NCBI GenBank assembly: GCA_052034935.1
Contig: JBPOIB010000007.1
Coordinates: 134-64,133 of the forward strand
DNA length: 64,000 nt
Origin: Candidatus Moraniibacteriota bacterium
Lineage (GTDB): Bacteria; Patescibacteriota; Minisyncoccia; Moranbacterales; UBA1568
Reading direction: 5' to 3'
Shown here: piece by piece, positions 2,784-21,263 of the stretch
How the letters are laid out: the number at the start of each line of letters is the position of its first letter
How positions within the stretch are numbered: the stretch's first letter is position 1
Translations under genes and position numbers: made by a program
The notes under the pieces: generated by a model
Seen by the model: only the letters and a program-made list of their open reading frames with translations
What the model was told of the DNA's origin: nothing
Database searches by the model: none

Positions 2784-4472
2784 TCAATCCTCATCAATAA
2801 GCGATCCCTCAGTGACGCGCTCCACCTCCGCAACAGTTGTAATCCCTTTGAGAACCTTGAGTATACCGTCGCCCTTCATCATCATCATTTTCTGACGTAC
2901 CGCTTCGGTCATAAGTTCATGTTCACTCGCCGCTTTGTCCGTGATGATTATTTTAGCCTCATCCGTCACTTCGAAAACTTCGTAGATAGCAATCCGCCCT
3001 CGGTAACCAGTATTGCCGCACTGGTCGCACCCCTTGCCCTGGTATGCCTTGACCGGATCTTGCTTGCTCAGTTCATACGCTGCCAGTTCCTCGTCAGCGA
3101 CGGCTGAACGCATGGATTCTATCTTCTTCAGCATACCGGGAGTGAGCACCGCTTCTTCTTTACAGTTTTCACAAATCCGACGCACCAGCCGCTGGGCCGC
3201 AAGCGCCTGAATCGATGACGCGAGAAGAAAGGGTTCTGCTCCCATATCGATGAGACGGGGCAGACCTTTGATCGCGTCATTCGTATGAAGCGTCGAGAGG
3301 ACGAGGTGACCAGTTAAAGCTGCATGAATGGCCAATTCACCAGTCTCCTCGTCGCGAATCTCACCGACCATGATGACGTTCGGGTCTTGGCGGAGAATAG
3401 AGCGGAGTCCATCAGCGAAATTATAGCCGATTTCCGGGCGGATCTGGCTCTGGTTCACGCCTTCCATAAAATACTCCACTGGGTCTTCAAGCGTAATAAT
3501 ATTGCGCTCCTCCTGATTGAGAATCTGGAGAAAAGCGTAGAGGGTTGTGGACTTACCGGAGCCCGTCGGCCCGGTAATGAGAATAATTCCATACGGCTCG
3601 CGGATTTTTGTCGTCAACACCTCACGGTTGCGCCCCCAGAGGCCGAGCTTGTCGAGATCGGCCATATTGTTCGATTTGTCGAGGATACGCATCACTACTT
3701 TCTCACCCTCAATCACCGGAAGCGATGAGACACGAAGGTCGACCGTCTTGCTCTCAGTCTCGACCCGGAAACGACCGTCTTGCGGCTTCCGTTTCTCATC
3801 GATCTTCAGGTTGGCGAGAATCTTGATGCGAGAAATGACCGCTCGCCCGACATCACCAGGAAAAACGAGCGAGGCCTTGAGAAGACCATCGATACGGAAT
3901 CGGACGCGGTACTCGCCATCGATCGGCTCGATATGGATATCGCTCGCGCGCCCTTCGAGTGCATGCTTCACGATGACGTCAACAAGCTTAGCGATTGGCG
4001 CATCTTGGAGAATTTCCGGGGATCGATTGTTCACTTTTTTCTCCTCCCGGACCTCGATGGCAGCGTCTTGGTCGGCCTTGAGCGATACCATCGCTTCTTC
4101 CAATGCCTGGTCGGCACCCGAATACAATTTCATGAGCTCGACATAGGACTCTTTCGGGATGAGATAGACTTCAATTCCAACCCGCTCTTTTTCTGCAAGA
4201 AATCGCAGCACATTGAGCGCATCAAAATCTTGAGGGTCGACCATCGCCACCGAGAGCACTCCCTCCCTGCGATCAAAAATGAGCATCTGATACTTGCGAG
4301 CCGTCTCCTCCTGCATGATGGAAAGCGTCTTCTTATCAATCACCTGGGGAATAGGATCAAGTAAAGGTACGCCAAGACTAGCAGCCAGGGCGGCCGGATC
4401 TTGCACAACCGCCGGATCCACCTCCTGCTCTTGTCGGCTCGCGGAAGAAGGTATTGTTGACTCTTCGGGCAT
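2784..4472 (-). CDS. pilB: Type IV pilus assembly ATPase PilB (GspE family)
   Basis: 562 aa; Walker A GPTGSGKSTT; C-terminal tetra-Cys CxxC...CxxC zinc motif; N-terminal GspE-N domain. Confidence 0.9.
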   Translation of the reverse strand: MPEESTIPSSASRQEQEVDPAVVQDPAALAASLGVPLLDPIPQVIDKKTLSIMQEETARKYQMLIFDRREGVLSVAMVDPQDFDALNVLRFLAEKERVGIEVYLIPKESYVELMKLYSGADQALEEAMVSLKADQDAAIEVREEKKVNNRSPEILQDAPIAKLVDVIVKHALEGRASDIHIEPIDGEYRVRFRIDGLLKASLVFPGDVGRAVISRIKILANLKIDEKRKPQDGRFRVETESKTVDLRVSSLPVIEGEKVVMRILDKSNNMADLDKLGLWGRNREVLTTKIREPYGIILITGPTGSGKSTTLYAFLQILNQEERNIITLEDPVEYFMEGVNQSQIRPEIGYNFADGLRSILRQDPNVIMVGEIRDEETGELAIHAALTGHLVLSTLHTNDAIKGLPRLIDMGAEPFLLASSIQALAAQRLVRRICENCKEEAVLTPGMLKKIESMRSAVADEELAAYELSKQDPVKAYQGKGCDQCGNTGYRGRIAIYEVFEVTDEAKIIITDKAASEHELMTEAVRQKMMMMKGDGILKVLKGITTVAEVERVTEGSLIDED

Positions 4473-4486
4473 GATAAAAGAAAAAC

Positions 4487-5269
4487 TTACTCAAACGGAT
4501 TGATTTTTCCTGTTCCACCAGTCTCAAGCGGTGGAAGTGGGGTCGTAACGAACGTGATCAGACTATCCGCTGCTTTAAAATCAAACTCTGACGATTGAAA
4601 CAGTGGGATATTGAGCGCATTCGCCACCTGTTTTTCTTTAATGTATTGGAAATCAGCTGTCATTGACCCAGTAAGAAATACTGACTCGGCCGGTTCTGGC
4701 GACGCACCCTCAGTCTCCGCTCCTGCCTGCTCATCTTCCTGATAGGTAATAGAAAACTCTTTTGTCGTATGGAGTCGGTCCGACTGATACACGAGCCTGA
4801 AAAAATCTTTGATATTCTGGTACGCCCCAAACACCGAAACCTCGACTTCATAGCTCTCTGGCGGTTCCGGTGGAGCCTCTGGCACAAGCTCTAGTTCGCT
4901 ACCATCCTCCGGGACGGCAACGCTCTCCATCACTGTAATAACCTGCTCATTCTTGGTGATATTCAGGGCAGTGACTATCAATCCGGATTTCTGAGCAAGA
5001 TAGTTCAGCATATCAACGACGCGCTCTTCATCAAGCGTTTTCGGATAGTACCGCTCGATGAAAGCGACTGTATCACTACGACTCTCCAATGCCTGGCCCA
5101 CAGCAGTGATGTTCGCCGCAACGGAGTCGACTCGCGAGAGAGCGTCTTTTTGAAGGGATATCTCGCTCTGTTTCGTCGTAATCTCATCAATATTCGGCTT
5201 AATGTAGCTGATAGCCAAAATCAGTTCGATGATGATGAATGTCGGGAGAATGAGTATTTTGAGCCTCAT
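4487..5269 (-). CDS. pilO: PilO-like pilus assembly protein (N-terminal TM + coiled coil)
   Basis: Operon position after pilN; single N-terminal TM helix followed by a coiled-coil region. Confidence 0.6.
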   Translation of the reverse strand: MRLKILILPTFIIIELILAISYIKPNIDEITTKQSEISLQKDALSRVDSVAANITAVGQALESRSDTVAFIERYYPKTLDEERVVDMLNYLAQKSGLIVTALNITKNEQVITVMESVAVPEDGSELELVPEAPPEPPESYEVEVSVFGAYQNIKDFFRLVYQSDRLHTTKEFSITYQEDEQAGAETEGASPEPAESVFLTGSMTADFQYIKEKQVANALNIPLFQSSEFDFKAADSLITFVTTPLPPLETGGTGKINPFE

Positions 5270-14186: not shown

Positions 14187-14747
14187 TTAGCTCTCATTGT
14201 TTACCTCATAGCGGAAGATGACACCACCATTCTGAAGCGATCGAGACTCCAAGAGTTTGAGGTTACGGGTCATATATTCATCAGTAAACAGTCTCCGGCC
14301 CTTACCAAGGATGATCGGGGCCACACACAAGCGAATCTCATCGATCATTCCAGCATTCAGAAGGGACTCCGTGAGCTTTCCACTCCCGAAAATATACATC
14401 GGCCGTTCACCCTGTTCTTTGAGCTGCCCCAGCTCGCTTACGGCATCATGGATAATTGTCGTGTTGTTCCACTCGGCCTTTTCGAGTGTCGTCGAGCACA
14501 CGACCTTCGCGATGCTCTTCATGAGCGGTGTCACCTCCCCCTCCGCATCCGCGGTCGGCCAGTAGTCAGCCATGCCCTGGTAGGTATTCTTGCCGAAGAC
14601 CAACATGTCCGCCTCACGCAGTTGCTCGAGACTGAGCGTTTCGAGTTCCGGCCCCCAGACGAGGGTGTGGAAAGATAGGTCCCACGGCTTCCCCCCTTCG
14701 AAACAGCCGTCAACCGTCACCACATTCCACACGATTATTTTTCTCAT
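14187..14747 (-). CDS. Dihydrofolate reductase family protein (RibD C-terminal domain)
   Basis: 186 aa; motifs VWNVVTVDG...FGKNTY...IFGSGKL. Confidence 0.75.
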   Translation of the reverse strand: MRKIIVWNVVTVDGCFEGGKPWDLSFHTLVWGPELETLSLEQLREADMLVFGKNTYQGMADYWPTADAEGEVTPLMKSIAKVVCSTTLEKAEWNNTTIIHDAVSELGQLKEQGERPMYIFGSGKLTESLLNAGMIDEIRLCVAPIILGKGRRLFTDEYMTRNLKLLESRSLQNGGVIFRYEVNNES

Positions 14748-14867
14748 AGCCTTGTTATGATTAAATACTGAAGTAATGAATAGCCTCTAAGAACTGACTT
14801 TCTCACCCCACTCTCTCATCATCGCCAAAAAAATACCAGGCCCCATTCAGGATCCTGGTATTTTTCT

Positions 14868-14959
14868 TGGTGCGGAGAGGGAGGGATTCGAACCCTCGAG
14901 GGTGATTAAACCCCGCCACGTTAGCAGTGTGGTGCCTTAAGCCGCTCGGCCACCTCTCC
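14868..14959 (-). tRNA. tRNA-Ser (anticodon GCU), class II with long variable arm
   Basis: Minus-strand GGAGAGGTGGCCGAGCGGCTTAAGGCACCACACTGCTAACGTGG...GAGGGTTCGAATCCCTCCCTCTCCG(CACCA). Anticodon loop CTGCTAA, T-loop TTCGAAT, 7-bp acceptor stem. The 3' tail is GCACCA, so the exact 3' end is ambiguous (14868 or 14873). Confidence 0.85.
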
Positions 14960-15212
14960 ATGTTTCATCCTGTCCAGAAACGATACGCCTGAACGCTTCG
15001 CCTCCTTTGTAGGATTTTACCAATTTTTCTATCCGCCTCGCTTCTGCTATATCGTCGAAGATTTTATAGCTGACTAATTGCCATTCGCCATTTCGCGTAG
15101 TTTGACCACCCGTATGGTTCTTATGGCGCGCTAGACGAGTAGAAAGTTCAAGACATGATCCGGTGTAATACTTACCGCTTATCTTGTCCTGAAGAATATA
15201 CGCGTATGGCAT
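14937..15212 (-). CDS. GIY-YIG nuclease family protein (UPF0213/YhbQ-like, about 92 aa)
   Basis: MPYAYILQD...GKYYTGS...RLARH matches the GIY-YIG core. The track ORF (14937-15299) carries 29 extra N-terminal codons that are simply translated tRNA-like sequence. Its stop codon is the TAA in the D-loop of tRNA-Ser. Confidence 0.7.
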   Translation of the reverse strand: MPYAYILQDKISGKYYTGSCLELSTRLARHKNHTGGQTTRNGEWQLVSYKIFDDIAEARRIEKLVKSYKGGEAFRRIVSGQDETWRGGRAA

Positions 15213-15216
15213 ATCT

Positions 15217-15291
15217 TTAAACCCCGCCACGTTAGCAGCCTGCCCCGCCTTGGCGGGGTGAAGTGCCTTAAGCCGCTCGGCCACCTCTCCA
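15217..15291 (-). repeat. Partial direct duplicate of tRNA-Ser (5' acceptor/D-arm plus anticodon loop-variable arm start; no T-arm)
   Basis: 28-nt and 22-nt blocks identical to tRNA-Ser at 14906-14960, separated by a 24-nt GC hairpin CCCCGCC-AAG-GCGGGG. Confidence 0.8.
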
Positions 15292-15339
15292 AAATTCACG
15301 CTTTACTCTAGCATAGCCGACTCTCCCCTTCAAGCCTAG

Positions 15340-15395
15340 GGAAACGGGCAAAAAAAGAGGCGGGCCGGTCCATGAGAGGGCCGGTCCGCCAGGGC
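15340..15395 (-). terminator. Probable intrinsic terminator of the desaturase gene (GC-rich imperfect hairpin followed by a U-run)
   Basis: Minus-strand GGCGGACCGGCCC..GACCGGCCCGCC followed by TCTTTTTTTG. Confidence 0.35.
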
Positions 15396-15408
15396 TTCTT
15401 TGTCGGCT

Positions 15409-16551
15409 TTACGACAGCTTGAGGCGGGCGAGTTTGCCCGCAAGTGCCCGGAGCCCCTCCGAGCCGCTCCGGAGCGCCGCATCACGCCAATGCATGAGTT
15501 CAACCAGAAGCTCGGTCTTGGAACGGTAATGCTTCGCCTCACCCGGTTCCGGGTCAGGTTCCGTCCAGAGCCTGATGAGCCGCTCGCGCATCGCTTCCCA
15601 ATCGACCGGTTCGTGCCGGTACTTCCGCCTCGTCTCATCGAACCAGCGGAGCGCCTGGTAGCGGAAGCAGATGATTGCCTCCACGGTAGCATCATCCCAG
15701 CGCTCGTTCGGGGCGAGCCTCACTTCAGGCGGAAGCCGGTCGACGCGGACGCGGGCGAGACCGAGATACGAAAGGGTGGCGATGTAGAGCCAGCCAATAT
15801 CGAACTCGTAGGGCTTGACCGAGAACTTGGCCGAGGTCGGATAGGTGTGGTGGTTGTTGTGGAGCTCCTCGCCACCGATGAGAATGCCCCAGGGCGAGAC
15901 GTTGGTCGAGGCATCAGCCGGGTCGAAATTGCGATAGCCCCACCAGTGGCCGAGGCCGTTGATGACACCCGTCGCCCACCAAGGGATCCAGACCATCTGC
16001 ACCGCCCAGACCGTCAGTCCGATCGCCCCGAAGAGGATGACATCGAGAACGAGCATTACGGCTACGCCCCACTTGCTCCAGGGAGTATAGAGATTCCGCT
16101 CGATCCAATCATCCGGCGTATTGCGGCCGTACTTCTCGATCGTCTCAGGATGAGCGGCTTCAGCCCGATAGAGTTCCACGCCGGTGAGGAGGAGCGCCTT
16201 GATGCCTCGGGTCTGCGGACTATGGGGATCCTCCTCGGTCTCGCATTTGGCATGGTGCTTGCGGTGCACCGCCACAAATTCCTTCGTGACCATGCCGGTG
16301 CCGATCCACAGCCAGAAACGGAAGAAATGCGACGGAATCGCGTGCAGATCCAGTGCCCGATGTGCCTGCGCGCGGTGGAGGAAAATGGTGACGGCCGAGA
16401 TGGTGATATGCGTCGTCACCAGCGTATACAGCAGAATCTGCCACCACGCTGAATCGATAGCGCCATGAGCGAGCCAATCGATGATGGCATCGCGAATAGT
16501 TTCCATAAGGGAGTCTCCTTCGAAACGTTGAAAGGCTGACAGAATTGTCAA
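15409..16551 (-). CDS. Membrane fatty-acid (acyl-lipid/acyl-CoA) desaturase
   Basis: 380 aa; histidine boxes HRKHH and HNNHH plus HRAxxH; multiple TM helices; the gene is 60-75% GC. Confidence 0.8.
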   Translation of the reverse strand: MTILSAFQRFEGDSLMETIRDAIIDWLAHGAIDSAWWQILLYTLVTTHITISAVTIFLHRAQAHRALDLHAIPSHFFRFWLWIGTGMVTKEFVAVHRKHHAKCETEEDPHSPQTRGIKALLLTGVELYRAEAAHPETIEKYGRNTPDDWIERNLYTPWSKWGVAVMLVLDVILFGAIGLTVWAVQMVWIPWWATGVINGLGHWWGYRNFDPADASTNVSPWGILIGGEELHNNHHTYPTSAKFSVKPYEFDIGWLYIATLSYLGLARVRVDRLPPEVRLAPNERWDDATVEAIICFRYQALRWFDETRRKYRHEPVDWEAMRERLIRLWTEPDPEPGEAKHYRSKTELLVELMHWRDAALRSGSEGLRALAGKLARLKLS

Positions 16552-20286: not shown

Positions 20287-21263
20287 CCCGCGAAAGCGGG
20301 TTTTTTCTTACCTTCGGACTCGGGCAGTATCCAGCCATTCTTCCGGACCAGCCACTGGAAAAGAATGAGTCCGATATTCCAGGGCAGCATTGAAAGGATC
20401 ACTACCATCACGGCGGCGGGATCACGGAAAATAGTTTCCGCCAAAAATATCGCGAGCGTGAAATTCATATACGAGAGCGAGAGTGTCACCGTCAGACGGT
20501 CTGTTCGGGAACGCCAAAAACAAGCAAAATAGCAGGCGATATGGAAGAGAATGAGTAGTCCCGACATAAGCAAGAATGCCTTCAGTGAGTCATCGCTCAT
20601 CAGTCCGGAGAGTATTTCGGCATTGTGTTTTGAGGCGATGCTCGCGATGAGGAGCCATAATGCCATGATCGATCCCGTGCGCGCGACCGATTGAGATGTA
20701 TGGATAAGATATTTTCCGTATGAAAAGTGCCGGACGAGCTGTGATATGAAAAGCGGCAACACCATGACCGTGAGCAGTGTCCGGAATATCGTGGATGGCT
20801 CGAAAGCAGTGGCGCCAGGGCCGAGGAATGAAAGGACTATAGGGAGCGAGAACACCGAGAGAAGCGATGTCCCAGCAGTCACAAAAAGCGAAAGGGGGAC
20901 ATTGCCACGAATCATATCCACAAAAAGTGGTGAGGTCATCCCGGCTGGCATGGCCGAAAGCAAAACCAGTGGTGCCAGAAGCTCCGGGAAAAAAATGATC
21001 GACAGGCCAGCGACAAAAACGGGGAAAGCGATGAGCCGGAGGAAACCGACCGCAAACAGGAGCTTGACGTCTCGAAATTCAGTAAGGATAGACCCAAGGT
21101 CAATCCGAAGACCGCTCACAAAAAATATGAACTGCAGAAAAAATACGGTCAGTCCGTGAACTGATGCGAACCACTCAGGGAAGAACAGCCCAGCCGCCAG
21201 AGCAGCCGCCAATCCCAGGAATGGCAGGTCATCCAACCGATGATGGATACCGGTGTGAGACAT
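20283..21263 (-). CDS. Sodium-dependent transporter of the bile acid:Na+ symporter (BASS/SBF) superfamily
   Basis: 326 aa, about 9-10 TM helices, SBF-like repeats. Confidence 0.5.
   Translation of the reverse strand: MSHTGIHHRLDDLPFLGLAAALAAGLFFPEWFASVHGLTVFFLQFIFFVSGLRIDLGSILTEFRDVKLLFAVGFLRLIAFPVFVAGLSIIFFPELLAPLVLLSAMPAGMTSPLFVDMIRGNVPLSLFVTAGTSLLSVFSLPIVLSFLGPGATAFEPSTIFRTLLTVMVLPLFISQLVRHFSYGKYLIHTSQSVARTGSIMALWLLIASIASKHNAEILSGLMSDDSLKAFLLMSGLLILFHIACYFACFWRSRTDRLTVTLSLSYMNFTLAIFLAETIFRDPAAVMVVILSMLPWNIGLILFQWLVRKNGWILPESEGKKKPAFAG
20284..20306 (+). terminator. Intrinsic terminator after the DUF1508 gene
   Basis: CCCGCGAAAGCGGG followed by TTTTTTCTT. Confidence 0.7.

Follow-up and report, generated by a model that had tools for sequence, protein, structure and literature searches.

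The mORFs of fungal mitochondria, described from atp6 of Allomyces and from atp6, atp9, cox2 and nad3 of Glomus, are endonuclease open reading frames (ORFs) that carry a duplicate of the adjoining end of their host gene, the native end being left as a flanking partial copy (PMC3630166). They appear to be the nearest described design to the subject of this report: a 331-bp cassette bearing the gene for a 91-residue GIY-YIG nuclease in the tRNA-Ser(GCU) gene of a Candidatus Moraniibacteriota bacterium, within 64 kb of contig JBPOIB010000007.1 (the window, which here means the whole stretch of DNA analysed). Probably a small selfish cassette, akin to a homing endonuclease element, has settled in this tRNA-Ser(GCU) gene, using the tRNA promoter for its own expression and restoring the gene that it targets, and by analogy it may be seen as the mirror image of a mORF on a bacterial tRNA gene. 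As in the mORFs, some of which are likewise of GIY-YIG type, an endonuclease ORF lies in a host gene that is restored to completeness and remains functional, with a displaced partial copy flanking it; mORF inserts are co-transcribed with the host gene, as is proposed here, and their presence or absence varies among close relatives. Whereas mORFs carry the 3' (C-terminal) part of a protein gene and have the native copy downstream, the present cassette carries the 5' part of a tRNA gene and has the displaced copy upstream, with the promoter. It differs further in its bacterial host, in a nuclease consisting of the catalytic domain only, in the palindrome placed within the displaced copy, and in the identity of the two copies.

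Phage T4 SegB is a free-standing GIY-YIG homing endonuclease encoded in a tRNA gene cluster (PMC2330249). The likeness lies in an intron-free GIY-YIG gene set among tRNA genes, and SegB is considered to favour the inheritance of itself and of the sequence that flanks it. Seg genes, in contrast, stand between genes rather than within a duplicated tRNA gene and have no associated palindrome, and the protein of the window matches the group I intron endonuclease model TIGR01453 weakly (E = 3e-4, below the cut-off), has no PHROGs match and has no relative in viral contigs. Seg proteins are also longer than 200 residues and carry DNA-binding domains. Closer in sequence and fold are proteins of the UPF0213 family, BH0048 of B. 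halodurans (1zg2) and EF2693 of E. faecalis (1ywl), which share with it the lack of an accessory domain; a prokaryotic Slx1-like "minimal" GIY-YIG form has been described (PMC1564403). A literature search found no report linking the UPF0213 family to tRNA genes, and the genomic context given below suggests a selfish role for at least its Patescibacteria and Bacteroidota branches.

Two further kinds of element share parts of the design. Integrative elements that target tRNA genes also insert there, regenerate the gene from an element-borne copy and leave flanking tRNA direct repeats. They duplicate the 3' part of the tRNA, encode a tyrosine or serine recombinase and are kilobases long, whereas the cassette duplicates the 5' part, has no recombinase and measures 331 bp; an integrase-mediated tRNA island was ruled out on the 5' rather than 3' duplication and on the absence of a recombinase nearby, a search of the insert and of about 2-3 kb to each side of it having found no recombinase, integrase or transposase gene. 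REP/RAYT systems and the IS200/IS605 family resemble it in combining short GC-rich palindromes with a small nuclease gene, one palindrome to each protein subfamily, but their nucleases have the HUH/Y1 rather than the GIY-YIG fold, and the palindromes described here are tied to tRNA genes and not dispersed in the sequence examined. The arrangement itself was not found described in the literature consulted, which included a paper on tRNA introns in Patescibacteria, in agreement with an earlier model-made reading of the bare sequence (the first-pass annotation) that knew of no such element.

The tRNA-Ser(GCU) locus and an empty counterpart

All features of the locus lie on the minus strand, and coordinates are those of the window:

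15305-15333, minus strand: promoter-like region of the tRNA gene, TTGAAG (15328-15333), 17 nucleotides (nt), TAGAGT (15305-15310)
15263-15290, minus strand: partial tRNA copy, segment 1, exact tRNA nt 1-28 (5' acceptor strand, D-arm and nt 26-28)
15239-15262, minus strand: palindrome module TTCA-CCCCGC-CAAG-GCGGGG-CAGG, 24 nt in place of tRNA nt 29-32
15217-15238, minus strand: segment 2 of the partial tRNA copy, equal to nt 33-54 (anticodon loop, 3' strand of the anticodon stem, beginning of the variable arm)
14937-15212, minus strand: GIY-YIG nuclease gene, 91 aa, ATG at 15212, stop codon TAA (14937-14939) in the tRNA D-loop
14932-15262, minus strand: the 331 bp that the empty site lacks; the 28-nt repeat allows several equivalent registers, of which this is one
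14872-14959, minus strand: intact class II tRNA-Ser(GCU), called by ARAGORN; Rfam RF00005 at 14873-14959, 53.8 bits, E = 1.6e-10
14823-14865, minus strand: terminator-like hairpin and then a T-run, 3' of the tRNA; inverted repeat with a 12-bp perfect stem and a 13-nt loop

Metagenome contigs were scanned with the 3' two-thirds of tRNA-Ser(GCU), the part that the partial copy (the remnant) lacks, and one of them, L064, has a single intact tRNA-Ser(GCU) directly behind the window's promoter and leader, with about 41 of 43 positions identical. A similar terminator follows, the homologous position also forming a hairpin, and a RibD_C gene 79% identical to that of the window lies downstream of the tRNA. 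At the tRNA unit exactly the 331 bp between the repeats set the two apart, and by this comparison they follow tRNA nt 28 and precede nt 29. What the remnant represents is therefore the gene's original 5' end, to which the promoter is still joined. The proposal of the first-pass annotation that a cassette had entered the tRNA gene and that the tRNA had been regenerated by partial duplication thus receives direct support, and its suggestion to look in related genomes for an empty site, or for the cassette at other tRNA genes, is answered by L064 and by the related subfamilies described below. Filled and empty states of this site are seen between different organisms, not in one population. The window's two tRNA copies are identical, and L064 departs from both of them in the D-loop and variable arm; because of that identity, native and carried copy are not separable by way of L064. 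Elsewhere, L064 has about 1.9 kb of extra genes (615-2514) between the tRNA and the RibD_C orthologue, and its similarity to the window upstream of the promoter stops about 50 nt before the tRNA, so that the tRNA unit sits at a rearrangement boundary.

The insertion contains, in order, the palindrome module, the copy of tRNA nt 33-54, AGAT, the ORF and the copy of tRNA nt 1-28, and the downstream tRNA is complete because the insert carries this last copy. Positions 15263-15291 equal 14932-14960 in 29 of 29 nt (T at -1 and tRNA nt 1-28), the repeat spacing being 331 nt, and 15217-15238 equal 14906-14927 in 22 of 22; an exact 28-nt repeat within 1.2 kb is far too unlikely to have arisen by chance. 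Several boundaries given earlier need adjusting. The tRNA had been placed at 14868-14959, which is right as to class and strand and 4-5 bases too long, ARAGORN beginning it at 14872; the partial copy, given as 15217-15291, consists of exact repeats as stated, with its G1 at 15290 and at 15291 the T at -1 that the tRNA also shares. What had been called a 24-nt perfect hairpin is a 16-nt hairpin (15243-15258; 6-bp stem CCCCGC/GCGGGG, loop CAAG) within a 24-nt module, which does replace the 5' anticodon-stem strand, and the copy indeed has neither T-arm nor 3' acceptor strand. The first-pass annotation expected both copies to be recognisable as tRNA-derived by covariance model; the intact tRNA scores and the partial copy has no Rfam tRNA match even at E ≤ 10, which is not counted against its tRNA origin because it is truncated and the exact repeats settle the matter.

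The nuclease gene begins 4 bases after segment 2, the AGAT of the insert lying between, and its final 22 nt overlap the tRNA, the frame ending on the D-loop TAA as first noticed. The open frame does cover the partial copy, from GTG 15299, and the public gene call (P0001) takes this longer form of 120 aa, of which the extra codons merely translate the remnant; the identical gene also occurs in sample SRR34217545. The start is placed at ATG 15212 because all homologues begin there, and the size moves from the roughly 92 codons first given to 91 aa.

The promoter-like hexamers match the consensus at 8 of 12 positions, and the remnant begins 14 nt downstream of them; hexamers of similar kind also lie upstream of the partial copy in L001 and L007. 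A strict sigma-70 promoter scan found none, the TTGAAG/TAGAGT pair falling under its threshold, and the region is called the tRNA promoter because it is conserved with the empty site. No motif comparable to these hexamers occurs between ORF and tRNA. The terminator-like hairpin was missed by the terminator scan, its loop exceeding the 8-nt limit. The tRNA is the only one that ARAGORN calls in the 64 kb, and CCA is not encoded in register. A group I intron in the tRNA gene was ruled out, the tRNA being uninterrupted and no Rfam intron family matching in 14500-15700 at E ≤ 10.

The GIY-YIG protein and its palindrome

By sequence and predicted fold the protein is a stand-alone, minimal GIY-YIG protein of the UPF0213 or prokaryotic Slx1-like kind. 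It matches PF01541 with 42.2 bits (cut-off 22.6; E = 9.9e-11; residues 2-67), in line with the motif-based identification of the first-pass annotation, and the Pfam scan found no domain besides GIY-YIG, the catalytic domain filling all 91 aa. Residues Y5, Y16, R26, H30 and E62 are invariant in 16 of 16 homologues; alignment to UPF0213 and I-TevI, and what is known of the family, assign them to the catalytic set of the Tyr of GIY, the Tyr of YIG, Arg, His and Glu. The nearest solved structures by sequence, BH0048 (3.3e-8) and EF2693 (2.2e-4), both belong to UPF0213. An AlphaFold2 model (predicted local distance difference test score 84.7) shows the GIY-YIG fold, a three-stranded sheet flanked by helices, and its best Foldseek matches are 1zg2, Slx1 (6seh; root-mean-square deviation 1.8 Å over 70 columns), 1ywl, I-TevI (1ln0) and UvrC (1yd6), with E-values that are modest, 2.6e-3 at best, because the domain is small. 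A DNA-binding or recognition domain of the kind found in homing endonucleases is lacking, and for this reason the protein is not filed under the I-TevI/Seg family.

Pairwise ratios of nonsynonymous to synonymous substitution rates among six genes of the window's type are 0.07-0.24, so that the protein is maintained by purifying selection. The GC content at third codon positions (GC3) is 0.42 in the nuclease ORF and 0.68-0.75 in four neighbouring genes, which makes the ORF compositionally foreign. PADLOC gave no defence or toxin model match and PHROGs no phage family match, leaving a reading as defence gene or phage gene unsupported; neither the protein profile nor the window-type palindrome matched viral contigs, so that nothing points to a phage vector.

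Selection clearly acts on the palindrome, and each protein subfamily has a form of its own. In nine aligned loci its stem and flanks (ACCCCGC...GCGGGGC) do not vary, unlike the loop and the spacer before the ATG, and the window type occurs only at this cassette position in all fetched loci, once in the window. Three subfamilies of the protein, two of them introduced below, each have their own form, CCCCGC-N3-4-GCGGGG, CCAGCC-N3-GGCTGG plus TCCGCC-N3-GGCGGA, and CCCGATAGCTATCGGG; in the second of these, compensatory changes preserve both dyads (TCCGCC/GGCGGA against TCGGCC/GGCCGA; CCAGCC against TCAGCC). L142 and L143 encode identical proteins, with the palindromes absent in L142 and present in L143, and in L086 the palindrome module is inverted. 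A switch between palindrome and variable arm was considered and rejected: in the minimum free energy (MFE) fold of the window the variable-arm copy pairs with the palindrome's 5' arm, but this pairing is not conserved in relatives, which have GGCAGGG at that place. The only other CCCGC-N4-GCGGG palindrome in the window, at 20287-20300 (CCCGCGAAAGCGGG), is probably an ordinary terminator stem. One IMG/VR contig of 14.7 kb (L148) has the double palindrome of the second subfamily once, at 4944-4973, between genes and without a tRNA; no adjacent GIY-YIG gene is evident, none having been searched for, and this viral occurrence is uninformative.

Relatives, turnover and other tRNA genes

Every close homologue with readable context (L001-L017, L071 and L147) has the window's layout: promoter-like region, tRNA nt 1-28, palindrome, anticodon loop, ORF and intact tRNA-Ser(GCU). 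Carriers of this window-type cassette are Moraniibacteriota, Paceibacterota and other Patescibacteria, with protein identities of 51-74%, and the homologues and shared neighbouring genes likewise place the window in a Moraniibacteriota-like lineage; the flanking genes vary by locus, and some cassettes lie inside contigs of 117-252 kb, others (L002, L004, L007, L008) on contigs that break inside the repeat. L010 and L012 come from metagenome-assembled genomes labelled 'uncultured Bdellovibrionales' and carry a window-type cassette otherwise found in Patescibacteria only; they may be mis-binned contigs or bear a wrong label.

The first 28 nt of the remnant are identical to the cassette's own tRNA in 8 of 10 loci, despite eight different tRNA sequences, with a mean of 0.5 differences from that tRNA and 4.0 from the tRNAs of other loci. 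Decay is also visible, as four substitutions in L010, D-loop deletions in L014 and L016 and extra GC-rich palindromic insertions in the remnants of L011, L014, L007 and L071. The scan matched 121 tRNA-Ser(GCU) genes, and a GIY-YIG gene precedes no more than a handful of them. L054 and L112 are scars without an ORF, remnant and palindrome standing directly before the tRNA; L016 is a tandem (remnant, ORF, second remnant, tRNA), and in the nested L086 the 3' stub of a window-type ORF with its remnant lies upstream of a cassette of another subfamily. Judged by such comparisons, gain, decay and loss of the cassette are recurrent. The first-pass annotation had held that an identical arrangement in all relatives, with no sign of mobility, would tell against a mobile cassette, and this came out half true: the relatives that bear the gene do share the arrangement, yet the signs of turnover are clear. 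Among 104 loci with 300 nt or more of sequence before the tRNA, 26 repeat there a 10-mer or longer from its 5' part; about 20 of these repeats start with the tRNA's own 5' end, and the others look like chance matches or neighbouring tRNAs.

In all six loci chosen by their protein alone, a second, larger Patescibacteria subfamily (L076 type; 566 matches at E ≤ 1e-8) directly precedes a tRNA-Ser, whose anticodon is GCU, UGA or CGA. Its leader consists of tRNA nt 1-8 or 1-12, then a conserved double palindrome (CCAGCC-N3-GGCTGG followed by TCCGCC-N3-GGCGGA) and sometimes a piece of the D-loop. In Omnitrophota, a gene 35% identical stands upstream of an intact tRNA-Met, its leader being tRNA-Met nt 1-29, a 77-nt double hairpin and nt 30-38. 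In a Bacteroidota subfamily (234 matches, with Pedobacter and Mucilaginibacter among the carriers) the gene lies just downstream of an intact tRNA-Leu(GAG or CAA) and is followed by a pseudo-tRNA-Leu with the palindrome CCCGATAGCTATCGGG in its D-loop and T-loop, and in Pedobacter tandem palindrome-bearing 5' fragments lie upstream. Across the fetched loci, all 39 GIY-YIG ORFs have a tRNA on their own strand no more than 340 nt away, apart from four ORFs without a tRNA call at contig ends and three in the array of L151.

Several of these loci show further rearrangement. Directly 5' of an intact tRNA-Leu(GAG), Pedobacter sp. KBS0701 (CP042171.1; L149, about 160-476) has at least four tandem units of about 65 nt, each made of tRNA-Leu nt 1-13, the palindrome and part of the D-arm. 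The Bacteroidota-type array L151 (1-1485 of contig_16420, 1.56 Mb) has at least five tandem units with a 376-nt period, each a 94-aa GIY-YIG ORF and a 91-nt spacer with CCCGATAGCTATCGGG, and no tRNA in the stretch read. In the Veblenbacteria-like L144 and L145 (about 580-1650), two GIY-YIG genes, three or four double palindromes and an intact tRNA-Ser(UGA) form a dense mosaic; an older tRNA, whose acceptor stem differs (GCGGAGGCG...CGCCTCCGC), is apparently split into 5' and 3' halves on either side of the intact one. In L143 (about 1030-1290) the T-arm of tRNA-Ser(GCU) is followed by the 3' acceptor region, an insert of about 200 nt and a second T-arm with 3' acceptor end, which suggests that partial duplications occur on the 3' side too.

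Elements of about 70-185 nt that lack an ORF, often in tandem, were also seen 5' of tRNA-Ser(GCU), as in L050 (4367-4586) and L066 (1085-1314), with similar ones in L088, L058, L140/L135, L039, L084 and L041. Each starts with the first 12-18 nt of the adjoining tRNA, and in L050 and L066 a 3' segment complementary to this start pairs with it, so that a cloverleaf-like fold of several hairpins is closed; a three-sequence alignment has compensatory changes in 9 of 29 predicted pairs. In several loci the tRNA leader of about 20 nt is duplicated as well. Rfam at its gathering threshold reports only tRNAs in the ORF-less elements upstream of tRNA-Ser, which may be non-coding relatives of the cassette or a separate structured RNA.

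Proposed mechanism and rival explanations

In the proposed mechanism, remnant, ORF and tRNA would form one transcript from the tRNA promoter, with the remnant as 5' untranslated region; co-transcription is proposed because no other conserved promoter-like element is present. Cleavage by RNase P at position +1 of the tRNA would turn the upstream part into a non-stop mRNA, and since the stop codon lies inside the tRNA, RNase P processing and full-length translation would exclude each other on any one transcript, full-length nuclease being made from unprocessed transcripts only and at a low level. The putative nuclease would break cassette-free tRNA-Ser genes, or promote recombination at them, and repair would copy the cassette from the filled allele, using tRNA nt 1-28 as homology on the left and the remaining tRNA on the right. 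Repair through tRNA homology would therefore recreate the 5' duplication at each event, with a remnant that matches the resident tRNA. The D-arm being common to Ser isoacceptors, jumps between them would be possible. The cassette could be lost in two ways: deletion of the ORF would leave a scar, and recombination of the 28-nt direct repeats with each other would restore the empty site. More speculatively, the palindrome may be a working part of the cassette, with candidate roles in destroying the target or fold of the remnant, in shortening the uninterrupted direct repeat or as a recognition element for the nuclease.

Horizontal movement is indicated by the foreign GC3, by targets that, in related subfamilies, include Ser-GCU, Ser-UGA, Ser-CGA, Met and Leu genes and by nested and tandem copies; on the proposed account the nuclease would drive the spread. 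Several points weigh against this account. The nuclease activity is predicted from sequence, and the target site and the transfer are postulated. The protein has no DNA-binding domain, which leaves sequence-specific recognition unexplained, as is self-immunity, the intact tRNA of a filled allele keeping any target that lies within the tRNA. The strict promoter scan was empty, and co-transcription is a proposal. L064 is a different organism, and gain in one lineage looks the same there as loss in the other. The synonymous distance (dS) is at least 0.8 between all sampled window-type copies, so that no recent transfer was caught, and within this small subfamily the arrangement looks largely vertically inherited.

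In an unlikely yet serious alternative, palindrome and cognate GIY-YIG nuclease make up the mobile unit, the nuclease acting on a DNA hairpin or dyad, in the way that RAYT serves REP elements or TnpA the ends of IS200/IS605, with tRNA genes as preferred landing sites because their arms form hairpins and the tRNA duplications as a by-product. The subfamily-specific palindromes with their compensatory changes speak for it, as do the pair L142/L143, the inverted module of L086, the tRNA-free array of L151, the palindromes in the D-loop and T-loop of Bacteroidota pseudo-tRNAs and a fold closest to that of Slx1, a structure-specific nuclease. Against it, in about 750 kb of fetched loci the palindromes stand only beside these genes, with a single copy in the window; we know of no GIY-YIG transposase, and the alternative by itself leaves the constant regeneration of a complete tRNA unexplained. 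Less probable again is a domesticated operon, in which a host nuclease gene is co-expressed with tRNA-Ser and the truncated copy is a selected cis-acting leader that might control translation, act as a stabiliser or offer a processing site. From a GIY-YIG/TrmH fusion, others have proposed that prokaryotic Slx1-like proteins have a role involving RNA (PMC1564403), and the arrangement is kept across Paceibacterota and Moraniibacteriota relatives at 51-74% protein identity, with an invariant palindrome stem and remnants that mostly equal their own tRNA. Against such domestication, the gene is absent at most tRNA-Ser(GCU) loci, that of a close relative included, remnants decay by deletions or extra insertions (L010, L011, L014, L016) and are down to 8 nt in L142 of the second subfamily, a locus may hold several cassettes, decayed ORFs occur, the ORF has foreign GC3, and the alternative pairing in the window's MFE fold is not conserved.

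The first-pass annotation had offered a decoy or processing element as its own alternative, which fits less well with the decay of the partial copies. A further reading, an addiction module whose GIY-YIG protein acts on tRNA-Ser RNA and whose remnant transcript is the decoy or antitoxin, could draw on the exact D-arm, anticodon loop and variable-arm start of the window's remnant and on the concerted evolution of remnant and tRNA; it is nonetheless highly improbable, for other subfamilies retain just 8-20 nt of tRNA, the remnant lacks T-arm and acceptor helix and has no tRNA score, no defence or toxin model matches, and all characterised GIY-YIG enzymes, to our knowledge, cut DNA. That assemblers have difficulty with the repeat is plain from the four contigs that break in it, but an assembly artefact, or a neutral local duplication beside an unrelated ORF, is scarcely credible with the same architecture in more than 25 independent assemblies or samples, some within contigs of 117-840 kb, a conserved palindrome and an ORF under selection.

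The selfish tRNA-gene cassette may, tentatively, be extended to a class: stand-alone UPF0213-type GIY-YIG genes with a subfamily-specific palindrome could represent an unrecognised class of minimal mobile elements that colonise tRNA genes, mostly class II Ser and Leu genes, in Patescibacteria, Omnitrophota and Bacteroidota, regenerating the tRNA and using its promoter. If so, this would be the first biological role for a widespread family (8,423 cluster representatives of stand-alone UPF0213/Slx1-like proteins at E ≤ 1e-3 in a profile search), common in bacteria and with no assigned role, and a partnership of nuclease and hairpin comparable to REP/RAYT on a different nuclease fold. At least three subfamilies recur in one context, with a duplicated tRNA gene around or next to the ORF, a palindrome of their own and gain, decay and loss of a selfish type, so that "function unknown" would give way to a testable hypothesis with cultivable carriers in Pedobacter and Mucilaginibacter. 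An essential RNA gene would be invaded harmlessly through a carried 5' segment and a borrowed promoter, the mirror of integrative islands and mORFs. Among selfish endonuclease cassettes this one is unusual in regenerating the 5' half of a tRNA, in its minimal nuclease and cognate palindrome, and in the range of phyla in which the design occurs. For Patescibacteria genomics, such duplications break assemblies and lead gene callers to extend the ORF into the remnant, as in the 120-aa public call, and tRNA-derived fragments upstream of tRNA-Ser are frequent (the 20 or so among 104 loci noted above).

Around the locus the window has genes of unremarkable kinds, for a PIF1-like helicase, DUF1761, RibD_C, a fatty-acid desaturase, a nitroreductase and HxlR. 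In one window-type relative, L015, ARAGORN calls a second tRNA-Ser at 3036-3125, with the unusual anticodon ACT, about 200 nt downstream of tRNA-Ser(GCU).

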